This document shows, piece after piece, positions 3,640-46,584 of a stretch of DNA of 64,000 nucleotides. Both the position numbers and the translations under genes were made by a program. Below the pieces are notes generated by a model, which did no database searches, was not told where the DNA came from, and was given only the letters and a program-made list of their open reading frames with translations. This stretch comes from Amia ocellicauda (Eukaryota), in the NCBI RefSeq assembly GCF_036373705.1, contig NC_089855.1, positions 18,085,962-18,149,961 of the forward strand. Reading direction: 5' to 3'. Position 1 is the stretch's first letter, and every line of letters starts with the position of its first letter.

Positions 3640-4857
3640 CACTCACCTAAAGGATTATTAGGAACACCTGTTCAATTTCTCATTAATGCAATTATCTAAC
3701 CAACCAATCACATGGCAGTTGCTTCAATGCATTTAGGGGTGTGGTCCTGGTCAAGACAATCTCCTGAACTCCACACTGAATGTCTGAATGGGAAAGAAAG
3801 GTGATTTAAGCAATTTTGAGCGTGGCATGGTTGTTGGTGCCAGACGGGCCGGTCTGAGTATTTCACAATCTGCTCAGTTACTGGGATTTTCACGCACAAC
3901 CATTTCTAGGGTTTACAAAGAATGGTGTGAAAAGGGAAAAACATCCAGTATGCGGCAGTCCTGTGGGCGAAAATGCCTTGTTGATGCTAGAGGTCAGAGG
4001 AGAATGTGCCGACTGATTCAAGCTGATAGAAGAGCAACTTTGACTGAAATAACCACTCGTTACAACCGAGGTATGCAGCAAAGCATTTGTGAAGCCACAA
4101 CACGTACAACCTTGAGGAGGATGGGCTACAACAGCAGAAGACCCCACCGGGTACCACTCATCTCCACTACAAATAGGACAAAGAGGCTACAATTTGCACA
4201 AGCTCACCAAAATTGGACAGTTGAAGACTGGAAAAATGTTGCCTGGTCTGATGAGTCTCGATTTCTGTTGAGACATTCAGATGGTAGAGTCAGAATTTGG
4301 CGTAAACAGAATGAGAACATGGATCCATCATGCCTTGTTACCACTGTGCAGGCTGGTGGTGGTGGTGTAATGGTGTGGGGGATGTTTTCTTGGCACACTT
4401 TAGGCCCCTTAGTGCCAATTGGGCATCGTTTAAATGCCACGGCCTACCTGAGCATTGTTTCTGACCATGTCCATCCCTTTATGACCACCATGTACCCATC
4501 CTCTGATGGCTACTTCCAGCAGGATAATGCACCATGTCACAAAGGTCCAATCATTTCAAATTGGTTTCTTGAACATGACAATGAGTTCACTGTACTAAAC
4601 TGGCCCCCACAGTCACCAGATCTCAACCCAATAGAGCATCTTTGGGATGTGGTGGAACAGGAGCTTCGTGCCCTGGATGTGCATCCCACAAATCTCCATC
4701 AACTGCAAGATGCTATCCTATCAATATGGGCCAACATTTCTAAAGAATGTTTTCAGCACCTTGTTGAATCAATGCCACGTAGAATTAAGGCAGTTCTGAA
4801 GGCGAAAGGGGGTCAAACACAGTATTAGTATGGTGTTCCTAATAATCCTTTAGGTGA

Positions 4858-4911
<54 letters not shown>

Positions 4912-7900
4912 CATACACACACTGATCAGCCATAACATTATGACCACTGACAGGTGAAGTGAATAACACTGATAATCTTATTATCATGGCATATGTCAGT
5001 GGGTGGGATCTATTAGGCAGCAAGTGAACATTTTGTCCTCAAAGTTGATGTGTTAGAAGCAGGAAAAATGGGCAAGCGTAAGGATCTGAGCGACTGACAA
5101 GGGCCAAATTGTGATGGCTAGACGACTGGGTCAGAGCATCTCCAAAACTGCAGCTCTTGTGGGGTGTTCCCAGTCTGCAGTGGTCAGTACCTATCAAAAG
5201 TGGTCCAAGGAAGGAAAAGCGGTGAACCGCCGACAGGGTCATGGGCGGCCAAGGCTCATTGATGCACGTGGGGAGCGAAGGCTGGCCCGTGGGGTCCGAT
5301 CCAACAGACGAGCTACTGTAGCTGAAAAAGTGAATGCTGGTTCTGATAGAAAGGTGTCAGAACACGCAGTGCATCGCAGTTTGTTGCGTATGGGGCTGCG
5401 TAGCCGCAGACCAGTCAGGGTGCCCATGCTGACCCCTGTCCACTGCCGAAAGCACCTACAATGGGCACGTGAGCATCAGAACTGGACCACGGAGCAATGG
5501 AAGAAGGTGGCCTGGTCTGATGAATCACGAGTTCAAGGTGTTGACTTGGCCTCAAAATTCCCTTAAAGACTTAAAGAATCTGCTACTAATGTCTTGGTGC
5601 CAGATACCACCACACACCATGACTCGACAGGTCTGGGCTGTTTTAGTGGCAAAAGGGGGACCTACACAATATTAGGCAGGTGGTCATAATGTTATGGCTG
5701 ATCGGTGTATATCTCTAGTGCAATTCTATAACATATAAAAACCCTTCCAATTTAGTTTTAATAATTGTTGAATAATATATTGTAAAATGTAGTTCTAAAA
5801 CTACACTCAGTTTAACATGGTCACCAACACCACTGCTGCTATTTTAGTTACCGAATGAATTTGTTGCACACGAACACTAGTTGTCTGAATCCAGGCACAC
5901 ATTGTACACACAGGGCTGTGAGCTCACCTGTAATTTCTTTTTTTCTTTTCTGAATGCAGAGCAGATATTTGAGACGCTTAAAACAGACCTCCAGCAGCAT
6001 ATTAAATCTCTTCCTCGCCAAAGGCCTTACAGCTGGGCGCTGGGCCACGGCTGTGCAGTGATGGGCTCTGACATGCTGTGGTACCGAGCAGAGGTGCTGG
6101 AGGTGATGGGTGGGAATGTGAAGGTTAGTGCTCACTCACCGTTACTAATGATCACCTGCACTGCAGTTTGATTTCCAGTTCCTGAAAGAAACACGTACAG
6201 GTCCCTAATATGCCAGCCTGTTGCTTGTTAGTTGGGACGGAGTATGATGCAGATGTTTTGTTAATGCTTATGCAGTTGGGAACATGTCACGACCTCAGTT
6301 GGTCGATGGGTCGAATGGCCTCCTTTCGTTTGTAGACTTTCAACTATAAAGAAATTGGGTTATTTTTTCTTTTGTACCTGTTTGGAGCAATGAAGTGGTT
6401 TACATTTCTCCGTGGGACAGGTGCGGTATGTGGATCAGGGGCTGATCGAGAACATCCCCATGTGCCACATCATCCCCACGGTCCTGTATAAGGAAGTGCC
6501 TCGGCTGTGCATTCCCTGTCAGCTCCATGGAGTTATACCTGTAAGTGCCAATGTCATAAGAGTATTTACTTTTAACTTTGCAGAACAAAAGAAAGAAACG
6601 AAGGGAGGGTAAGGGTGTTGAATGTTATAAGTGGAATTTCTGAGTAAATATCCGGGCTGAGAAAAAGGAATCCATTATGTTCTCGTCCAGGTGTCGGTCT
6701 TGGAAGCATATACTGTCTGAGTCACTGAGGCAAATGCTGGGCTCTCTGCTTTTCTCTACAGGGGACTTCATGTAGGATTGTGGCATTAAGATTCCCAGAG
6801 TTTTCTTGATGCTGTGTTCTCTCCACAGGTTGGCACAGTTTGGCAGACCGATGCAGTTGCTTTGCTAAAAGAGTTACTTCAGTGTCGATCTGTTGATATG
6901 CAGATCATGGTACAGTATCCTTATACAATACAGTATAGAAAGCATAAGGTGTTAAAGCATTTGTTCTGAGTGGATTTAGTTTGTAATGTGAAACAATGTA
7001 AATGCAGGAAGAAGTAGCTCAACCAGTGAAAACCTCTTCATGTAGATGCACCATTTGGCAGTTTCTTGGGAGAGCACACATGCATTACAGTACTGTTTAC
7101 TAATAAAAACATGATTACCATGTGAGCAGAGTTGTAGGCACTGTGTTGTCCCTACTTGTGTGTGTGAAAGGCATGCGAGTCTTTTCATGTGTGAAAGACT
7201 AGTCTGGGATGTATGAATGACACAGGTGTGTGTTTGGCGGCCTGTTGTAGGAGCTGCCCTCAGAGCCGCTTGGCAAGGTGACAGTCCAGATCCATTTTGA
7301 CGGGATGACTCTGAGTCGTATCATGGAGCACCATCGGCACGCCTCGCGGGACCCCTCTGTCAGCGTGCCTGAGGTACGGGACCGCAGCCAAACCTGCGCA
7401 CTGAGCCGATGTACTGTGCTGCTGGAGTCTCGGCATTGTATGACTGAAAGTATCTTGTCTTGCCAGGAAGCTCTAATGACTTCATCCAACAAAGAATTGG
7501 AGAACTGGGACTTAAACATCATGGTAATATATTTTTTATATATATACTAATGATAAAAAAAATATCCTCTACCAAATTCTTAACAAGGTGCTTTCTGTGC
7601 AGGGACTGACAGACGAAAGGCCGCTGCCGGGACTCTTCACTTATCCTCCATTCCCAGACACTGGAGAGCACTTTCCTGTCAGAATCAAACACATCCGCAC
7701 CCCTAACGAGGTACTGTCACCAGCTGAGAGAGCTGTTATGGTCTGAAGCTATTTTCAAACTTTCTGACCTCAAGCAGACCAGACCAATGTGAAACAAAAA
7801 AATCACTTCAGTCTTCTGGTAGTAACATGCCCAGCTTGACCATTTAGCTCACATTTCTTGTGAAACTGTCTTCATCTAACCCACTTGAGTATGTTTTTTG

Positions 7901-16600: not shown

Positions 16601-18328
16601 CAGAAAGTGCCACTTGAAACTGAGAATATGAGCTTCTGAAATAGCACACAATGAAACACATAGCCCATGCCTTGAGAGCTTTGCTGGTTGTGAACTAACT
16701 TGTCCCCATTTGCGTACCTGTCCCCTGTCTGTAAGAGTTCTTCCTGTGAGGCATCATCTCCGTCTGGGCCCCGGAGGAGGGACTCTTGTGTCACACGGGG
16801 CTTCCTGGGCTGAGGTGTGTCTTCATAAATACTGCTTCTGTGCAGCTCTTCACTACTTGGACCTTCAGAAGAGAGGCTTTGTCCTGTTGAGGGAAGAACA
16901 TGTTATTTTGAAATATAAATGATCTTCCAGTAAAGTAATAATTGGAAATCATAAATGTCTGGTTTCACAGAGCTTGAGCAGCACGGGTCTAAAACTTCTC
17001 CATGTAAAATAACATTGAGTCCATGACTACTGCTAATTTGGGTCTCAAATCGTATTAAAATTGTATGTATATTTAGTCAAATTATATTTTCCTCAGATAG
17101 GTATCACAACAAAGCAATTACACTGGAAATGTTATACTTCTTCTACACCGGGTACCTCAAGAACATTCCTAACTAGATCATGTCAGGTATAAATCACTGA
17201 ATTATACTAAGAATAATATAGCCTACATGTATACTCTGAGCTGAATGTTTGTTTCCCAGGAGTTTTACCCATAGTTGCATTTGAATCTTCCTCTTCTTCG
17301 GTATCTGGATCACAGGGGCTCCCTAGTACACTGTTTCTCAACGTCCGGTCTGCTTTCTGCTCAGGGGATTCTGCCTGCAGCGCTAAGGAATACTGCTCCA
17401 CAGGGACTCTACAGTCAGTCACACTGGAATAAGTGTGTACATTTGGTAGTGAGAAAAGTCCCTTTGAAGCATCGTAGGCAGACATCTCTTCATTTTCAGC
17501 AGGCTCGGGCATCTTGGGGTCACCTGTATAACAAGAGAAATACAGTTGCTGGTAATGGCATAACTACCGATCCACTCAAATTATTAATTTTGAAACCTAC
17601 ATCCACAGTGTTACCTGTGAGGGCCTGCTGTGCAGACACCATGTGGAGCAGTCTCTGCTGCTCCTCCAGTAGCCGGTGGAGCTGCTGCATCTGGTGGAGC
17701 TTGAGTTGTTCCTGCTTCTGCTGCTGCCACTCCTTCAACTGAACACACAGAGCCACGGTTACAAAACCCGGGCCCTAACCCTCTTATTACACACAACTCA
17801 CAACCTGCTCTTGAAACAAACCCAAAATGTGCACAATACACTAGCAGCCTATCCAGAACTGGAATTTGTAATATTGGGCATAAAATATACAATTACTAGT
17901 TGTACCTGTTCAAGTTTCTGCATTAAGGGAAAGTCATGCCTCTGTCTAGTGTTGCCAGCCTCATCCATGCTGTCTAGCTCCCGGGACAGACCTTCAGAAG
18001 TTGCAGGTGATGAGATAGTGTTCAGTCCAGTGGGCTGGAGGGCTCTGATGTCAAACGAAGTGTCACCCTCCTGGTTTGAGGTGCCTTTAGCTGCAGCATC
18101 TGCCAGCAGAAGGGAGTCCACACTGAGGCAGCTACTGTTATTTGACGCAGGGAGTGGGACGAACTGGGTGGAGAAAGAATCATTGACATCCTCTGGCATC
18201 CAGGTGGCTTTCAAGGGGCTAACGAAGTCCAGTTGATGATTCAGTATTACCCCAGCCCGGGAACTGCATGGCATCCACTGAGCTAGAATGTTTGATTCTG
18301 ACTGCAACCCAGCTGAAGATGACATCAT
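10436..18328 (-). CDS. cenpj: Centromere protein J (CPAP/SAS-4 homologue), a complete CDS of 16 coding exons. The C-terminal G-box/TCP10 repeats are recognisable.
   Basis: Block-wise similarity to human CENPJ: N-terminus …QWM…SRAGVILN; a [13 protein letters not shown] exon; a large 1.5-kb central exon with [27 protein letters not shown] and FPSLKPKPK; coiled-coil exons ([30 protein letters not shown]); G-box repeats [22 protein letters not shown] and [32 protein letters not shown]. Confidence 0.9.
11004..11124 (-). CDS. cenpj: cenpj exon (G-box: [40 protein letters not shown])
   Basis: Acceptor ctccttacag|AAAAGC, donor GAAGCT|gtaagt. Confidence 0.8.
11227..11311 (-). CDS. cenpj: cenpj exon ([28 protein letters not shown])
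   Basis: Acceptor cttgttcag|ATTTAC, donor CAAATCG|gtagga. It matches human …[20 protein letters not shown]…. Confidence 0.8.
11662..11802 (-). CDS. cenpj: cenpj exon ([47 protein letters not shown])
   Basis: Acceptor tttttcag|ATAGAA, donor GAGTG|gtgagt. It carries the canonical G-box. Confidence 0.85.
11922..12011 (-). CDS. cenpj: cenpj exon ([30 protein letters not shown])
   Basis: Acceptor gttctgcag|AGCACG, donor GGAAAG|gtagga. Confidence 0.75.
12280..12395 (-). CDS. cenpj: cenpj exon (…[38 protein letters not shown])
   Basis: Acceptor ctgttacag|TCAAC, donor CCTCCT|gtaagt. Phase-consistent. Confidence 0.65.
12733..12805 (-). CDS. cenpj: cenpj exon ([24 protein letters not shown])
   Basis: Acceptor ttctttcag|AGTCC, donor GAGAG|gtaaag. 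Phase-consistent. Confidence 0.6.
13079..13324 (-). CDS. cenpj: cenpj coiled-coil exon ([63 protein letters not shown]…QRAKST)
   Basis: Acceptor tgctgcag|GTGCTG, donor TCCACT|gtgagt. It matches the human ETKWSSTHSRLR block. Confidence 0.85.
13631..13796 (-). CDS. cenpj: cenpj coiled-coil exon ([55 protein letters not shown])
   Basis: Acceptor cttcattgcag|GAAGG, donor ATGCAG|gtgaga. It is near-identical to the human [18 protein letters not shown] block. Confidence 0.85.
14151..14283 (-). CDS. cenpj: cenpj exon ([44 protein letters not shown])
   Basis: Acceptor tatctttcag|GGAAC, donor CCTGAG|gtatga. Confidence 0.85.
14426..15971 (-). CDS. cenpj: cenpj large central exon (about 515 codons; [26 protein letters not shown] … [27 protein letters not shown] … [10 protein letters not shown] … AEQAS)
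   Basis: It extends ORF 14301-15824 in the same frame. Acceptor tatttaaag|GGCCCAG, donor CATCAG|gtagat. Confidence 0.85.
16313..16421 (-). CDS. cenpj: cenpj exon ([36 protein letters not shown])
   Basis: Acceptor aatgactag|GCCAAT, donor GCAGCAG|gtctgt. It matches human [21 protein letters not shown]. Confidence 0.85.
16534..16554. repeat. poly(A) homopolymer of about 21 nt in a cenpj intron
   Basis: Read directly. Confidence 0.9.
16718..16883 (-). CDS. cenpj: cenpj exon ([54 protein letters not shown])
   Basis: Acceptor ccctcaacag|GAC, donor GGGGACAG|gtacgc. Confidence 0.7.
17269..17523 (-). CDS. cenpj: cenpj exon ([40 protein letters not shown]…[12 protein letters not shown])
   Basis: Acceptor tatacag|GTGACC, donor CTATGG|gtaaaa. 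Confidence 0.7.
17615..17738 (-). CDS. cenpj: cenpj exon ([41 protein letters not shown])
   Basis: Acceptor tgtgtgttcag|TTGAAG, donor CTCACAG|gtaaca. It matches human [27 protein letters not shown]. Confidence 0.85.
17906..18328 (-). CDS. cenpj: cenpj first coding exon. ATG at 18328 ([32 protein letters not shown]…[10 protein letters not shown]). The exon extends 7 nt further into the 5'UTR, to 18335.
   Basis: ORF 17849-18328. Donor GAACAG|gtacaa at 17905. The human N-terminus …LTQWM…SRAGVILN is conserved. Confidence 0.85.
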
Positions 18329-19058: not shown

Positions 19059-19200
19059 CTAATATTTTCCAAAAGCTCAAGTACACACACATTGACAAAC
19101 TCCGCGCTCCCTTAGAAACAGACAATACATCTTTCCGAATATACCGCCATATAAAAACAATGCCCGCGAGAGAGCGGCAGTTCCCACCGGCGCTGTGGAT
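19059..19200 (-). other. cenpj: Putative non-coding first exon (5'UTR) of cenpj. The TSS is not determinable from sequence.
   Basis: A consensus donor (minus) TATTAG|gtaagaaacc lies at 19058-19053. It sits directly downstream of ZNF143/CCAAT/ETS promoter motifs. The coding exon at 18335 has an acceptor and no upstream in-frame ATG of its own. Confidence 0.45.
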
Positions 19201-19950
19201 TCTGGGAATTGTAGTAACAGCAGGCGACCATCTACGTTTGAAACATTAGGGAATTCTGATGCTGAACTACGTTTCCCATAATGCAGTTCTCGATGTACGT
19301 TAAAGGGACGAGGTGGTGACGTAATGTTAAAGGTCGCGTTGTGGTGCAGATTTACGCAGATCTGCGCTGCTCCGACAATGGGATTGGAGGATTTCTGCAG
19401 ATCTGCACAGAACTGTGGCAATCTGCGCTACAAGAACGCGAGCATACGCATTTTAAATAAATCTGCAGTGTTTGTTTACATTACACAAGGCGGGAGGAGG
19501 GCGCTAAAGTTACAGATGATAGCCGCTAACTTTGGGTCAAACACTGTTACCAATATCTGATGGTTCTTCTCAAAATGTAACTATGGACTCGACATTGTTA
19601 CAGTTAGGTAGTTGCTGCCTTTAAAATGTATATATATATATATATATACACTTTACTTAAAAACAAAACAAAACAAAACCAAAAAACTAGCGCGGAGCAA
19701 CTGAAGTTGGTACAAATGAGACGACTGCAAACATCCAAACCACACACAGCTCCTTGCACCAACGGTATAATTACATGAAACTTAGCGGGCGAGAGGAGGC
19801 TAAATACAGTTTCATTTTTAAAGGTTTATACTATCAGATGTCCACTAGATGGGAATATAGATCCCATTCTTCATAAACTGAGGGTGAAAAGCAGGCTTGC
19901 TATACCCGGAAGTGCGAGTCAGGCAGGACCGGGATTGGCATTTGCAGTTG
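19060..19950. promoter_or_regulatory. cenpj/parp4 head-to-head (bidirectional) promoter region
   Basis: There is an elevated-CpG interval of about 0.9 kb between the divergent first exons. ZNF143 SBS-like motifs lie on the minus strand at 19198-19219 (ACTACAATTCCCAGAATCC) and on the plus strand at 19265-19293 (ACTACGTTTCCCATAATGCAG). ETS/GABP CCGGAAGTG lies at 19905-19914. CCAAT (ATTGG) sites lie at 19381-19386 and 19933-19938. Confidence 0.6.
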
Positions 19951-33500: not shown

Positions 33501-36500
33501 CACAGTACACAGACTACTAAGAGGAGCTCTTGCTTTTCTCCCTATTGCTGTCTGCAGGCGTGCATGCTAGTGTTTTACCCGGCATTTGAGTCCAACACAG
33601 ACCCGGGTGAGGGGGAGGTTGTCATTCTCTTGGACACCTCCAATTCTATGAGGGGCGAGACCCTTCAGAATGCCCGGAGGATCGCCCTGCTGGCACTGAA
33701 GGCCCTCAACTGCAAGGTCAACATCCTCTTCTTTGGCACAGGTGGGTGCTGGCCAAAATAATTTGGACTTACACCTTTATTGGAAACACACAGTTGTGTC
33801 AAATCTTGTCAGTTCATCATTTTATTACATGCAGCGCCTTTTTATCAAGTCCTCAAATTGCTAGGAAATCACAATTGGAGTAAAGCATTGTGAGAAACAA
33901 GCAGTCAGTTCACTAATGATCAGAAGTATAAATCCAAACATCACAGTAGCATAATAGTTGTACAGTTAGGTCCATATATATTTGGACAGTGACACAATTG
34001 CCATCATTTTGGCTCTGTACGCCACCACAATGGATTTTAAAAGAAACAATCAAGATGTGTTTTCATCTTTAATTTTAGGGCAGTTACATCCAAATTGGGT
34101 GAACGGTGTAGGAATTACACCCATGTATATATGTGATCCCACCAATTTTAGGGGCTCAAAAGTAATTGGACAAACTAACATAATCATGAATTAAATTGTG
34201 AGTTTCAAATCCTTTGCAGTCGATGACTGCCTGAAGTCTGGAACCCATAGACATCACCAGATGCTGGGTTTCTTCCCTGGTGATGCTCTGCCAGGTCTGT
34301 ACTTCAGCTGTCTTTAGTTCCTGCTTGTTCTTGGGGCGTTTTGCCTTAGAAATCAAAACAAACCAATCAGAGAGATGGCAACAGCGTTAGGTGTGGCAAA
34401 ATCAACTATGTGGTACATTCTTAAAAAGAAAGAGAACGCACTGGTGAGCTCAGGAACACCAAAAGGCACAGAAGACCATGGAAAACAACTGTGGTGGATG
34501 ACAGAAGAATTATTTCCCTGGTGAAGAAAAACCCCTTCACAACAGTTGGCCAGATGAAGAACACCCTCCAGGAGGTAGGCATATCTGTGTCAAAGTCAAC
34601 AATCAAGAGAAGACTTCACCAGTGTAAATACAGAGGGTTTACCACAAGATGTAAACCATTGGTAAGCCCCAAAAACAGGAAGACCAGATTAGAGTTTGCT
34701 AAAAAAAACATTTGAAGAACCCTGTACAATTCTGGAACAACATCCTATGGACAGATGAGACAAAGATCAACCTGTACCAGAATGATGGGAAGAGAAGAAT
34801 ATGGAGAAGGGAAGGAACTGCTCATGATCCGAAGCATGTTATGGCATGGGCATGTATGGCTACCAAGGGAACTGGTTCGAAGCATACAGTGAAGGAAAAA
34901 AGTATTTGATCCCCTGCTGATTTTGTACATTTGTCCACTGAGAAAGAAATGATCAGTCTATAATTTTAATGGTAGGTGTATTTTAACAACAATAACAACA
35001 AAAAAATCCAGAAAAACACATTTCAAAAAAGTTATAAATTGATTTGCATGTTAATGAGTGAAATAAGTATTTGACCCCTTCGACTTAGTACTTGGTGGCA
35101 AAACCCTTGTTGGCAATCACAGAGGTCAGACGTTTCTTGTAGTTGGCCACCAGGTTTGCACACATCTCGGGAGGGATTTTGTCCCACTCTTCTTTGCAGA
35201 TCCTCTCCAAGTCATTAAGGTTTCGAGGCTGACGTTTGGCAACTCGAACCTTCAGCTCCCTCCACAGATTTTCTATGGGATTAAGGTCTGGAGACTGGCT
35301 AGGCCACTCCAGGACCTTAATGTGCTTCTTCTTGAGCCACTCCTTTGTTGCCTTGGCTGTGTGTTTTGGGTCATTGTCATGCTGGAATACCCATCCACGA
35401 CCCATTTTCAATGCCCTGGCTGAGGGAAGGAGGTTCTCACCCAAGATTTGACGGTACATGGCAAAACATCCATCGTCCCTTTGATGCGGTGCAGTTGTCC
35501 TGTCCCATTAGCAGAAAAACACCCCCAAAGCATAATGTTTCCACCTCCATGTTTGACGGTGGGGATGGTGTTCTTGGGGTCATTCCTCCTCCTCCAAACA
35601 CGGTGAGTTGAGTTGATGCCAAAGAGCTCGATTTTGGTCTCATCTGACCACAACACTTTCACCCAGTTCTTCTCTGAATCATTCAGATGTTCATTGACAA
35701 ACTTCAGACGGGCCTGTACATGTGCTTTCTTGAGCAGGGGGACCTTGCGGGCGCTGCAGGTTTCAGTCCTTCATGGCGTAGTGTGTTACCAATTGTTTTC
35801 TTGGTGACTGTGGTCCCAGCTGCCTTGAGATCATTAACAAGATCCTCCCGTGTAGTTCTGGGCTGATTCCTCACCGTTCTCATGATCATTGAAACTCCAC
35901 GAGGTGAGATCTTGCATGGAGCCCCAGACCGAGGGAGACTGACAGTTATTTTGTGTTTCTTCCATTTGCGAATAATCGCACCAACTGTTGTCACCTTCTC
36001 ACCAAGCTGCTTGGCGATGGTCTTGTAGCCCATTCCAGCCTTGTGTAGGTCTACAATCTTGTCCCTGACATCCTTGGACAGCTCTTTGGTCTTGGCCATG
36101 GTGGAGAGTTAGGAATCTGATTGATTGATTGCTTCTGTGGACAGGTGTCTTTTATACAGGTAACGAGCTGAGATTAGGAGCACTCCCTTTAAGAGAGTGC
36201 TCCTAATCTCAGCTCGTTACCTGTATAAAAGACACCTGGGAGCCAGAAATCTTGCTGATTGATAGGGAATCAAATACTTATTTCCCTCATTAACATGCAA
36301 ATCAATTTATAACTTTTTTGAAATGCATTTTTCAGGATTTTTTTGTTGTTATTCAGTCTCTCACTGTTAAAAATTAAAATTATAGACTGATCATTTCTTT
36401 GTCAGTGGGCAAACGTACAAAATCAGCAGGGGATCAAATACTTTTTTCCCTCACTGTACTGCGAAAGCAACCCAAGTCTTTTTTTAAGGTGAAGAAGTGG

Positions 36501-46079: not shown

Positions 46080-46473
46080 AGTGACACTGGCATTGGCGGA
46101 TCCAAGGGGATCGGTGCGATTCTGCAGATCTGCGCAGAACTGCGGGAATCTGCGCTACAAAGTGTGAGCACGGCGCGGGCATCCGGGGCTGCAGGCGACT
46201 ACAGCTGGAGATCATGTGATTGGTGTAAACTAAACTGCAGCGACTGTACTATTCTCCCTGGGATTGGTCGCCTGAGCGGTCTGTCAATACAACCTTTGAT
46301 CCCATTGGTGAACGTAGCGTCCTACACGCCCCGCCCTCCCAGACGGTCGCCCCGCCCCCCGAGACGAGAGGCAGCGCCTGCTCAGACGGCGAGGCCTGGG
46401 CTGTGGCGCAGACGTGCAGTCACCGCACAAGTTTGGTTTCGTAAGAAAGAAAAAAAAGCAAATATCAACAGAG
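46080..46473 (+). promoter_or_regulatory. mphosph8: mphosph8 CpG-island promoter / 5'UTR region
   Basis: Three inverted CCAAT boxes (ATTGG at 46217-46222, 46262-46267 and 46304-46309). GC boxes CCCCGCCC at 46328-46335 and 46349-46360. High CpG density immediately upstream of the ATG at 46474. Confidence 0.6.
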
Positions 46474-46584
46474 ATGGCGGACAAGGCTGCCGGGGCCGAG
46501 CGGTCGGAGCACGGCGACAGTGAGCAGGATGAGGAGGATGTGTTCGAGGTGGAGCAGATTATTGATGAGAGGCAAGACGAGGAG
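46474..46584 (+). CDS. mphosph8: mphosph8 first coding exon (MADKAAGAERSEHGDSEQDEEDVFEVEQIIDERQDEE)
   Basis: ATG at 46474, donor GAGGAG|gtgagc. Confidence 0.85.

Follow-up and report, generated by a model that had tools for sequence, protein, structure and literature searches.

A stretch of 64,000 nucleotides of Amia ocellicauda DNA (the window) had been described from its letters alone as carrying one palindromic module of about 45 bp in two promoters 27 kb apart, and the question that this locus raises is how the module came to be in both places and whether it acts there as a control element. Protein searches upheld the gene names given in that preliminary description, with cenpj on the - strand and parp4 and mphosph8 on the + strand (mphosph8 also by tblastx). 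The parp4 matches carry PARP, BRCT and VIT domains, and the best protein relatives are from sturgeon, at about 46% identity. Sustained CpG-rich regions occur in the window only at 19.0-19.4 kb and 46.0-46.8 kb, and every copy of the module falls in one of these two promoter regions, that of cenpj/parp4 (site A) or that of mphosph8 (site B). The module thus lies in the setting of a CpG-island promoter, a CpG-rich region next to first exons.

The two direct copies, A+ (TTCTGCAGATCTGCACAGAACTGTGGCAATCTGCGCTACAA) and B+ (TTCTGCAGATCTGCGCAGAACTGCGGGAATCTGCGCTACAA), were delimited by direct reading and alignment. They are identical at 38 of 41 positions (93%) and both lie on the + strand. The two sites had been recognized correctly, whereas their extents are corrected here to those in Table 1 (copy B+ had been started at 46129). 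A search with the first 23 bases of the module (TTCTGCAGATCTGCRCAGAACTG), allowing up to three mismatches, matched A+ and B+ alone in the 64 kb, with 0 matches expected from shuffles, so the shared module is real. BLAST aligned 19376-19433 with 46103-46160 at 84.5% identity over 58 nt (E = 6.5e-12), and the binomial probability of at least 38 matches in 41, taken over every position pair in the window, is about 2.5e-10. The 8-mer ATCTGCGC occurs four times in 64 kb, every time within sites A and B, and the palindrome GCAGATCTGC is present three times in the window, perfect once in each of the three copies of the module, against 0.04 occurrences expected. No further pair of sequences in the 64-kb window approached the similarity of A+ and B+. 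A chance origin of the copies is rejected on the 23-mer scan, the BLAST alignment, the binomial probability and the excess of GCAGATCTGC; the copies share descent, as 93% identity over 41 nt far exceeds that of independent sites of one factor.

Table 1. Positions of the module copies, their flanks and neighbouring promoter motifs in the window.
Feature	Position	Strand	Description
Copy A+	19393-19433	+	TTCT / GCAGATCTGC / ACAGAACTGT / GGCAATCTGC / GCTACAA; nhmmer E = 2e-12
Copy B+	46120-46160	+	TTCT / GCAGATCTGC / GCAGAACTGC / GGGAATCTGC / GCTACAA
Copy A- (partial, inverted)	19339-19372	-	module positions 8-41; GAGCAGCGCAGATCTGCGTAAATCTGCACCACAA; nhmmer E = 0.002
Possible degenerate fourth half-copy	46400-46421	-	ACTGCACGTCTGCGCCACAG; inverted-repeat search
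Composite imperfect palindrome, ~110 nt	19330-19443	.	A- and A+ around a CCAAT-box spacer
Left flank	19376-19392	+	weak homology to 46103-46119, 11/17 identical (BLAST)
ATTGG (CCAAT box on - strand)	19383-19387		inside left flank of A+
Right flank	19434-19449	+	weak homology to 46161-46175 with a 1-nt indel; GAGCA common to both
SBS motif (ZNF143/THAP11-type)	19197-19215	-	ACTACAATTCCCAGAATCC, 1 mismatch; toward cenpj; outside module
SBS-type motif	19266-19284	+	ACTACGTTTCCCATAATGC, 1 mismatch; toward parp4; 55-150 nt upstream of module copies

Beyond the core, MAFFT extended a weak similarity between the two sites to about 85 nt. This includes the downstream GAGCA, which had been reported for both sites and is indeed collinear, with a 1-nt indel; within the same right flank, the CGCG of site A aligns with TGTG of site B. 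The upstream ATTGG.GGA, likewise reported as shared, is present at both sites but is not collinear, as 1 nt separates its end from the module in A and 19 nt in B, and the alignment sets ATTGG of A opposite ATCGG of B. The core differs at 3 of 41 positions and the alignable flanks at 15 of 33 (Fisher p = 2e-4), which fits constraint on the core, although this contrast vanishes if the copied unit was only about 41 nt long and the similarity of the flanks is fortuitous.

Using a profile of A+ and B+, we detected a third copy, partial and inverted, beside A+ at site A. This copy, A-, was also found by the inverted-repeat search and by BLAST, and it is identical to B+ at 27 of 34 positions and to A+ at 25 of 34. 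A further duplication of part of the core had been placed at 19345-19365. There is a repeat at that place, but it is the larger inverted copy of the module and not a mere duplicate of GCAGATCTGCGC. By coordinates and gene strands, A- is oriented toward cenpj, A+ toward parp4 and B+ toward mphosph8. The profile found no further copy of the module in the remaining ~60 kb of the window. The degenerate half-copy listed in Table 1 is not significant and is absent from the nhmmer profile output; if it were counted, it would break the pattern of one oriented copy per gene.

The three copies also suggest a direction of change. Two of the three differences between A+ and B+ are changes of CpG to CpA or TpG in A+, whereas B+ retains all three CpGs and is the closest copy to both A+ and A-. 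A- has lost a different CpG than A+, and since these losses are at separate positions, B+ looks nearest to the ancestral sequence.

Together, A- and A+ make site A a composite palindrome, whose arms (19339-19372 and 19400-19433) are 74% complementary and separated by a 27-nt spacer. Folded as DNA, the site reaches -29.1 kcal/mol (z = -4.9), a value equalled by none of 200 shuffles. Such a structure could mean that the module represents part of a dispersed repeat family, for example a MITE or another short non-autonomous element. Site A would then be an almost complete palindromic copy of some 110 bp and site B a solo half, any promoter location would be due to insertion preference or to chance, and no function would be required. 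A dispersed repeat had been offered as an alternative in the preliminary description, and it gains from the palindromic form of site A, with inverted arms of at least 34 nt and a strong fold, from the shortness of the unit and from its restriction to one lineage, as the module is absent from the orthologous promoters of other lineages. The window is also rich in transposons and includes an intact Tc1-type transposase ORF. However, terminal inverted repeats are found at site A only, site B being without a second arm, and direct reading revealed no target-site duplication at the ends of the site A arms; TTAA stands on both sides of these arms, but at unequal distances of 2 and ~11 nt. The other ~60 kb, transposon-rich parts included, hold no copy, so that all three copies in the window are in CpG-rich promoter regions, and divergence is very uneven between core and flanks. 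Rfam covariance models applied to the whole window at the gathering score gave 0 matches, and no tRNA-like gene was found in it. An origin as a dispersed repeat is a serious rival, if somewhat less probable than the reading favoured below.

Internally, the module repeats the palindrome GCAGATCTGC as a 10-bp unit three times in tandem and closes with GCYACAA. Tandem Repeats Finder reported a period of 10 with 3.2 copies at 46124-46155, and the repeat search placed site A in the same 10-nt register as site B. Two overlapping perfect palindromes had been claimed for the core. GCAGATCTGC is perfect at both sites, as claimed, whereas TCTGCGCAGA is found in B only and site A reads TCTGCACAGA. Over the three copies, the nested dyad is retained in 93% of cells, with a single two-sided change, from G-C to A-T. 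This compensatory-looking change is not significant, as 158 of 500 shuffles equal it, and two CpG decays alone would yield it about one time in four. Dyad symmetry and 10-bp phasing fit a dimeric binder.

The same nested dyad might instead form a hairpin that is transcribed with the first, 5' untranslated exons of parp4 and mphosph8 and acts as RNA, or else a DNA cruciform. Nested stems are predicted in both direct copies (z ~ -2.5), all three of the differences between A+ and B+ keep or extend the pairing, one of them as the G-C to A-T change, and the SBS-type motif on the + strand could put the parp4 start upstream of the module. The stems are short, however (4 and 6 bp), the outer one is only partly retained in A-, the covariation among three sequences is not significant, and Rfam gave no match. 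In addition, A- would be read in the direction of cenpj, but its position some 170-220 nt upstream of the probable cenpj start would leave it outside the cenpj mRNA. We consider a functional hairpin very improbable.

A protein-coding origin was assessed from the reading frames, as a small coding exon or an upstream ORF encoding a peptide with ...FCRSAQNCGNLRYK... In the frame from 19393, the three differences of the core, as well as the one that follows downstream, occupy third codon positions and are synonymous. In B, the same frame is without an ATG, stays open for about 27 codons and stops one codon past the shared peptide; the flank differences, at codon positions one and two, alter the encoded residue, A- differs at many residues, and simple CpG decay accounts for two of the "synonymous" changes. 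Given the lack of an ATG in B and the immediate stop, the synonymous pattern is judged a coincidence, and a coding function is scarcely credible.

The position of the copies relative to the genes was examined at both sites. The mphosph8 ATG is at 46475, and B+ ends 315 nt upstream of it. On the other side of the locus, the cenpj ATG exon begins at 18328, and a non-coding exon 1 of cenpj appears to end at ~19052 with an AG/GTAAGA donor. For parp4, the exon with the ATG (24386) lies 5 kb away from site A, directly behind a 3' splice acceptor; because of this acceptor, the first exon of parp4 should lie further upstream, plausibly in the CpG-rich region at 19.3-19.6 kb. The designation of site A as a joint cenpj/parp4 promoter thus stands on the cenpj side, while on the parp4 side, with the ATG exon 5 kb off, it is a plausible assignment. 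Two SBS motifs outside the module (Table 1) are divergent and ~50 nt apart, and from their sequence they likely represent the core of a bidirectional cenpj/parp4 promoter. The distances from the copies to the likely transcription starts differ among cenpj, parp4 and mphosph8. A TATA-like sequence, TTTAAATAAA, is located at 19451-19460, 18 nt downstream of A+; its use would put the parp4 start at ~19485 and A+ at about -50 to -95.

We compared the module and the gene order with nine loci from other fish, comprising sturgeon L001 and L003 (mphosph8), paddlefish parp4 (L002), the teleost contigs L004-L007, and the parp4 loci L008 and L009. The module is absent from all nine, every species being distant, and perfect GCAGATCTGC was found 0 times in their 184 kb. 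The preliminary description had held that absence from the orthologous promoters would count against the element, and this expectation was borne out in part, as the module is missing from the cenpj and mphosph8 promoters of teleost L005, from sturgeon L001 and L003, and from the region upstream of paddlefish parp4. Since the compared species are all distant, what the absence shows is confinement to a lineage and not that the module has no function. The cenpj core promoter, in contrast, is kept in L005, where positions 262-288 match 19145-19171 of the window over 27 nt at 89% (CGCCAT.T.AAAACAA.GCCCGCGAGA), beside an SBS that L005 carries as well. Promoter orthology is therefore detectable at that distance, and the module is not among the conserved parts. 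In sturgeon L001, a run of N at ~4050-7200 lies exactly in the intergenic region between mphosph8 and cenpj, so part of the sturgeon cenpj promoter may have escaped the comparison. Two degenerate patterns of the module gave 0 matches in contigs of metagenomes and prokaryote genomes, as did the first pattern in viral contigs, results that are uninformative about fish.

The order of the genes differs among these loci. In the window, the divergent cenpj and mphosph8 have parp4 between them. In teleost L005, 8 kb separate the cenpj core promoter from exon 1 of mphosph8 in a head-to-head arrangement, and tblastx found no convincing parp4 exon in this interval. Sturgeon L001 has mphosph8 exon 1 and the cenpj N-terminal exon apparently head to head as well, on a scale of 7-8 kb, and paddlefish parp4 (L002) has no cenpj within 10 kb upstream. 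The parp4 loci of electric eel and Gambusia and Pfam scans of the ORFs of L004 and L005 yielded no polarity for the gene order. These arrangements, and the fact that A+ and B+ are direct repeats at either end of the interval that runs from site A, on its parp4 side, to the promoter of mphosph8, would agree with the two copies being a rearrangement scar that flanks the 26.7-kb parp4 segment, has no regulatory role, and records the arrival of parp4, or a past duplication, between cenpj and mphosph8. Teleosts, as well as sturgeons and paddlefish, have whole-genome duplications in their ancestry, so reciprocal gene loss explains the gene order equally well as an insertion of parp4, and the N gap of sturgeon L001 falls in the key interval. 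Moreover, a neutral scar that predates such lineages should not keep 93% identity, and the third, inverted copy requires a separate event. A scar is improbable on these grounds.

We also asked which known motif the module could be. The ZNF143/THAP11 SBS (ACTACAnnTCCCAnnATGCA...) is, like the module, a long oriented motif of CpG-island promoters, and the module ends in CTACAA and contains GGGAAT. Yet CTACAA and GGGAA are in the wrong order and orientation, and the module is palindromic and 10-bp periodic whereas the SBS is neither. A search for ACTACAnnTCCCAnnATGC(A..GCG) with up to three mismatches found only the two SBS motifs of Table 1, neither of them in the module, and this identity is rejected. 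The TCTCGCGAGA palindrome of vertebrate CpG-island promoters has been reported as a BANP/ZBTB33 site. It resembles the module in being a perfect 10-bp CpG palindrome of such promoters, and B+ has the same TCT...AGA arms in TCTGCGCAGA. The centre in the module is GCGC, however, and not CGCG; the arms are intact solely in B, with A+ altered as described above and A- without the left arm; and the palindrome that is kept in all three copies, GCAGATCTGC, is without CpG. The TCTCGCGAGA element was rejected accordingly. An E-box (CANNTG) does not fit, as the module core CAGATCTG reads CAG-AT-CTG and is two bases too long. NRF1, E2F/CDE-CHR, the CENP-B box, the Kaiso site TCCTGCNA, MRE, THAP1, EBF, RBPJ, GFI1 and REST half-sites gave no clean fit in all three copies; these comparisons were made by reading the sequence and serve as leads only.

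When the palindromes were searched for in the literature, only primers, vectors and the TraR operator came up. The match to primers is explained by TGCAGATCTGCACA (19396-19409), which makes adjacent PstI and BglII sites. Contamination with a cloning vector is unlikely in spite of these sites, as the copies differ by CpG decay and lie inside unrelated native promoters. The same 14 bases of A+ are the central ones of the tra box, ATGTGCAGATCTGCACAT, the operator of Agrobacterium TraR. The likeness is informative in that a helix-turn-helix dimer can read the palindrome found in A+, but TraR acts on a bacterial quorum-sensing operator, and the match is a coincidence of short palindromes with no relation to a fish promoter. 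For the bacterial tra box of TraR, PMC11399107 cites structure PDB 1L3L and quotes only the part GCAGATCTGCACATC.

Tentatively, we favour the reading of the module as a lineage-specific promoter segment that was copied locally and has been kept as a clustered putative site for a dimeric DNA-binding factor. According to this proposal, a piece of promoter DNA would have been copied locally rather than spread through the genome, giving rise to three copies, each of which came to lie upstream of, and facing, one of cenpj, parp4 and mphosph8. Its core, the GCAGATCTGC array with GCYACAA, would have been retained as a clustered site for a dimeric sequence-specific protein, and sites one helical turn apart would place the dimers on one face of the DNA. 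The factor would act in CpG-island promoters, with a presumed effect on transcription. A site for a dimeric factor best fits the restriction to promoters, the presence of a single intact palindrome in every copy, the helical spacing of the units and the stronger conservation of the core than of the flanks. Several points speak against it. The copies have lost different CpGs of the core, so single positions are not indispensable; the contrast between core and flanks depends on the length of the copied unit, as noted above; no known factor or motif matches, and the module is absent from the promoters of the other fish that were fetched; and the distances to the likely transcription starts differ, while spread is assumed to have been local only. 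The cis-regulatory element with a dimeric binding site that had been suggested in the preliminary description therefore draws support from common descent, the dyad, the 10-bp phasing and the location in CpG promoters, but finds none in known motifs or in conservation at orthologous promoters.

A more specific and quite unlikely version is that the GCAGATCTGC array is the site of a new, lineage-restricted dimeric protein, such as a domesticated transposase or some other factor of the helix-turn-helix kind, which co-regulates cenpj, parp4 and mphosph8 as genes related to cell division. The sequence adds one more case to a familiar category, that of the low-copy promoter-associated repeat or cis-module. 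Should it be functional, it would provide a clean small example of neighbouring vertebrate genes sharing a control element through local copying of a promoter, and its defined array of 10-bp palindromes could be used as bait for the factor. Should it be a repeat fragment or a rearrangement scar, it would be ordinary, and its main use would be as a marker of how the order cenpj-parp4-mphosph8 arose.

Other features of the window were recorded during this analysis. The proximal promoter of mphosph8 contains ATTGG (CCAAT) boxes at 46219, 46263 and 46304, spaced by 41-44 bp, and these are followed at 46327-46366 by a 21-bp tandem duplication of a GC box, CGCCCCGCCC..CAGACGG. The intact transposase ORF at 3788-4828 (+) encodes 346 amino acids of the Tc1/mariner type with HTH_Tnp_Tc3_2 and DDE_3 domains, which suggests a recently active element; a search of the public collection gave no record of the exact 346-aa protein. 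Other Tc1-like fragments were recognized by eye at 1770-2441 (no Pfam match) and 5111-5566. A Sleeping-Beauty-like Tc1 transposase, split in two ORFs with HTH_SB and DDE_3 domains, is located at 35085-36099 (-) inside the span of parp4, between its coding segments at ~33.6 kb and 37.6 kb.
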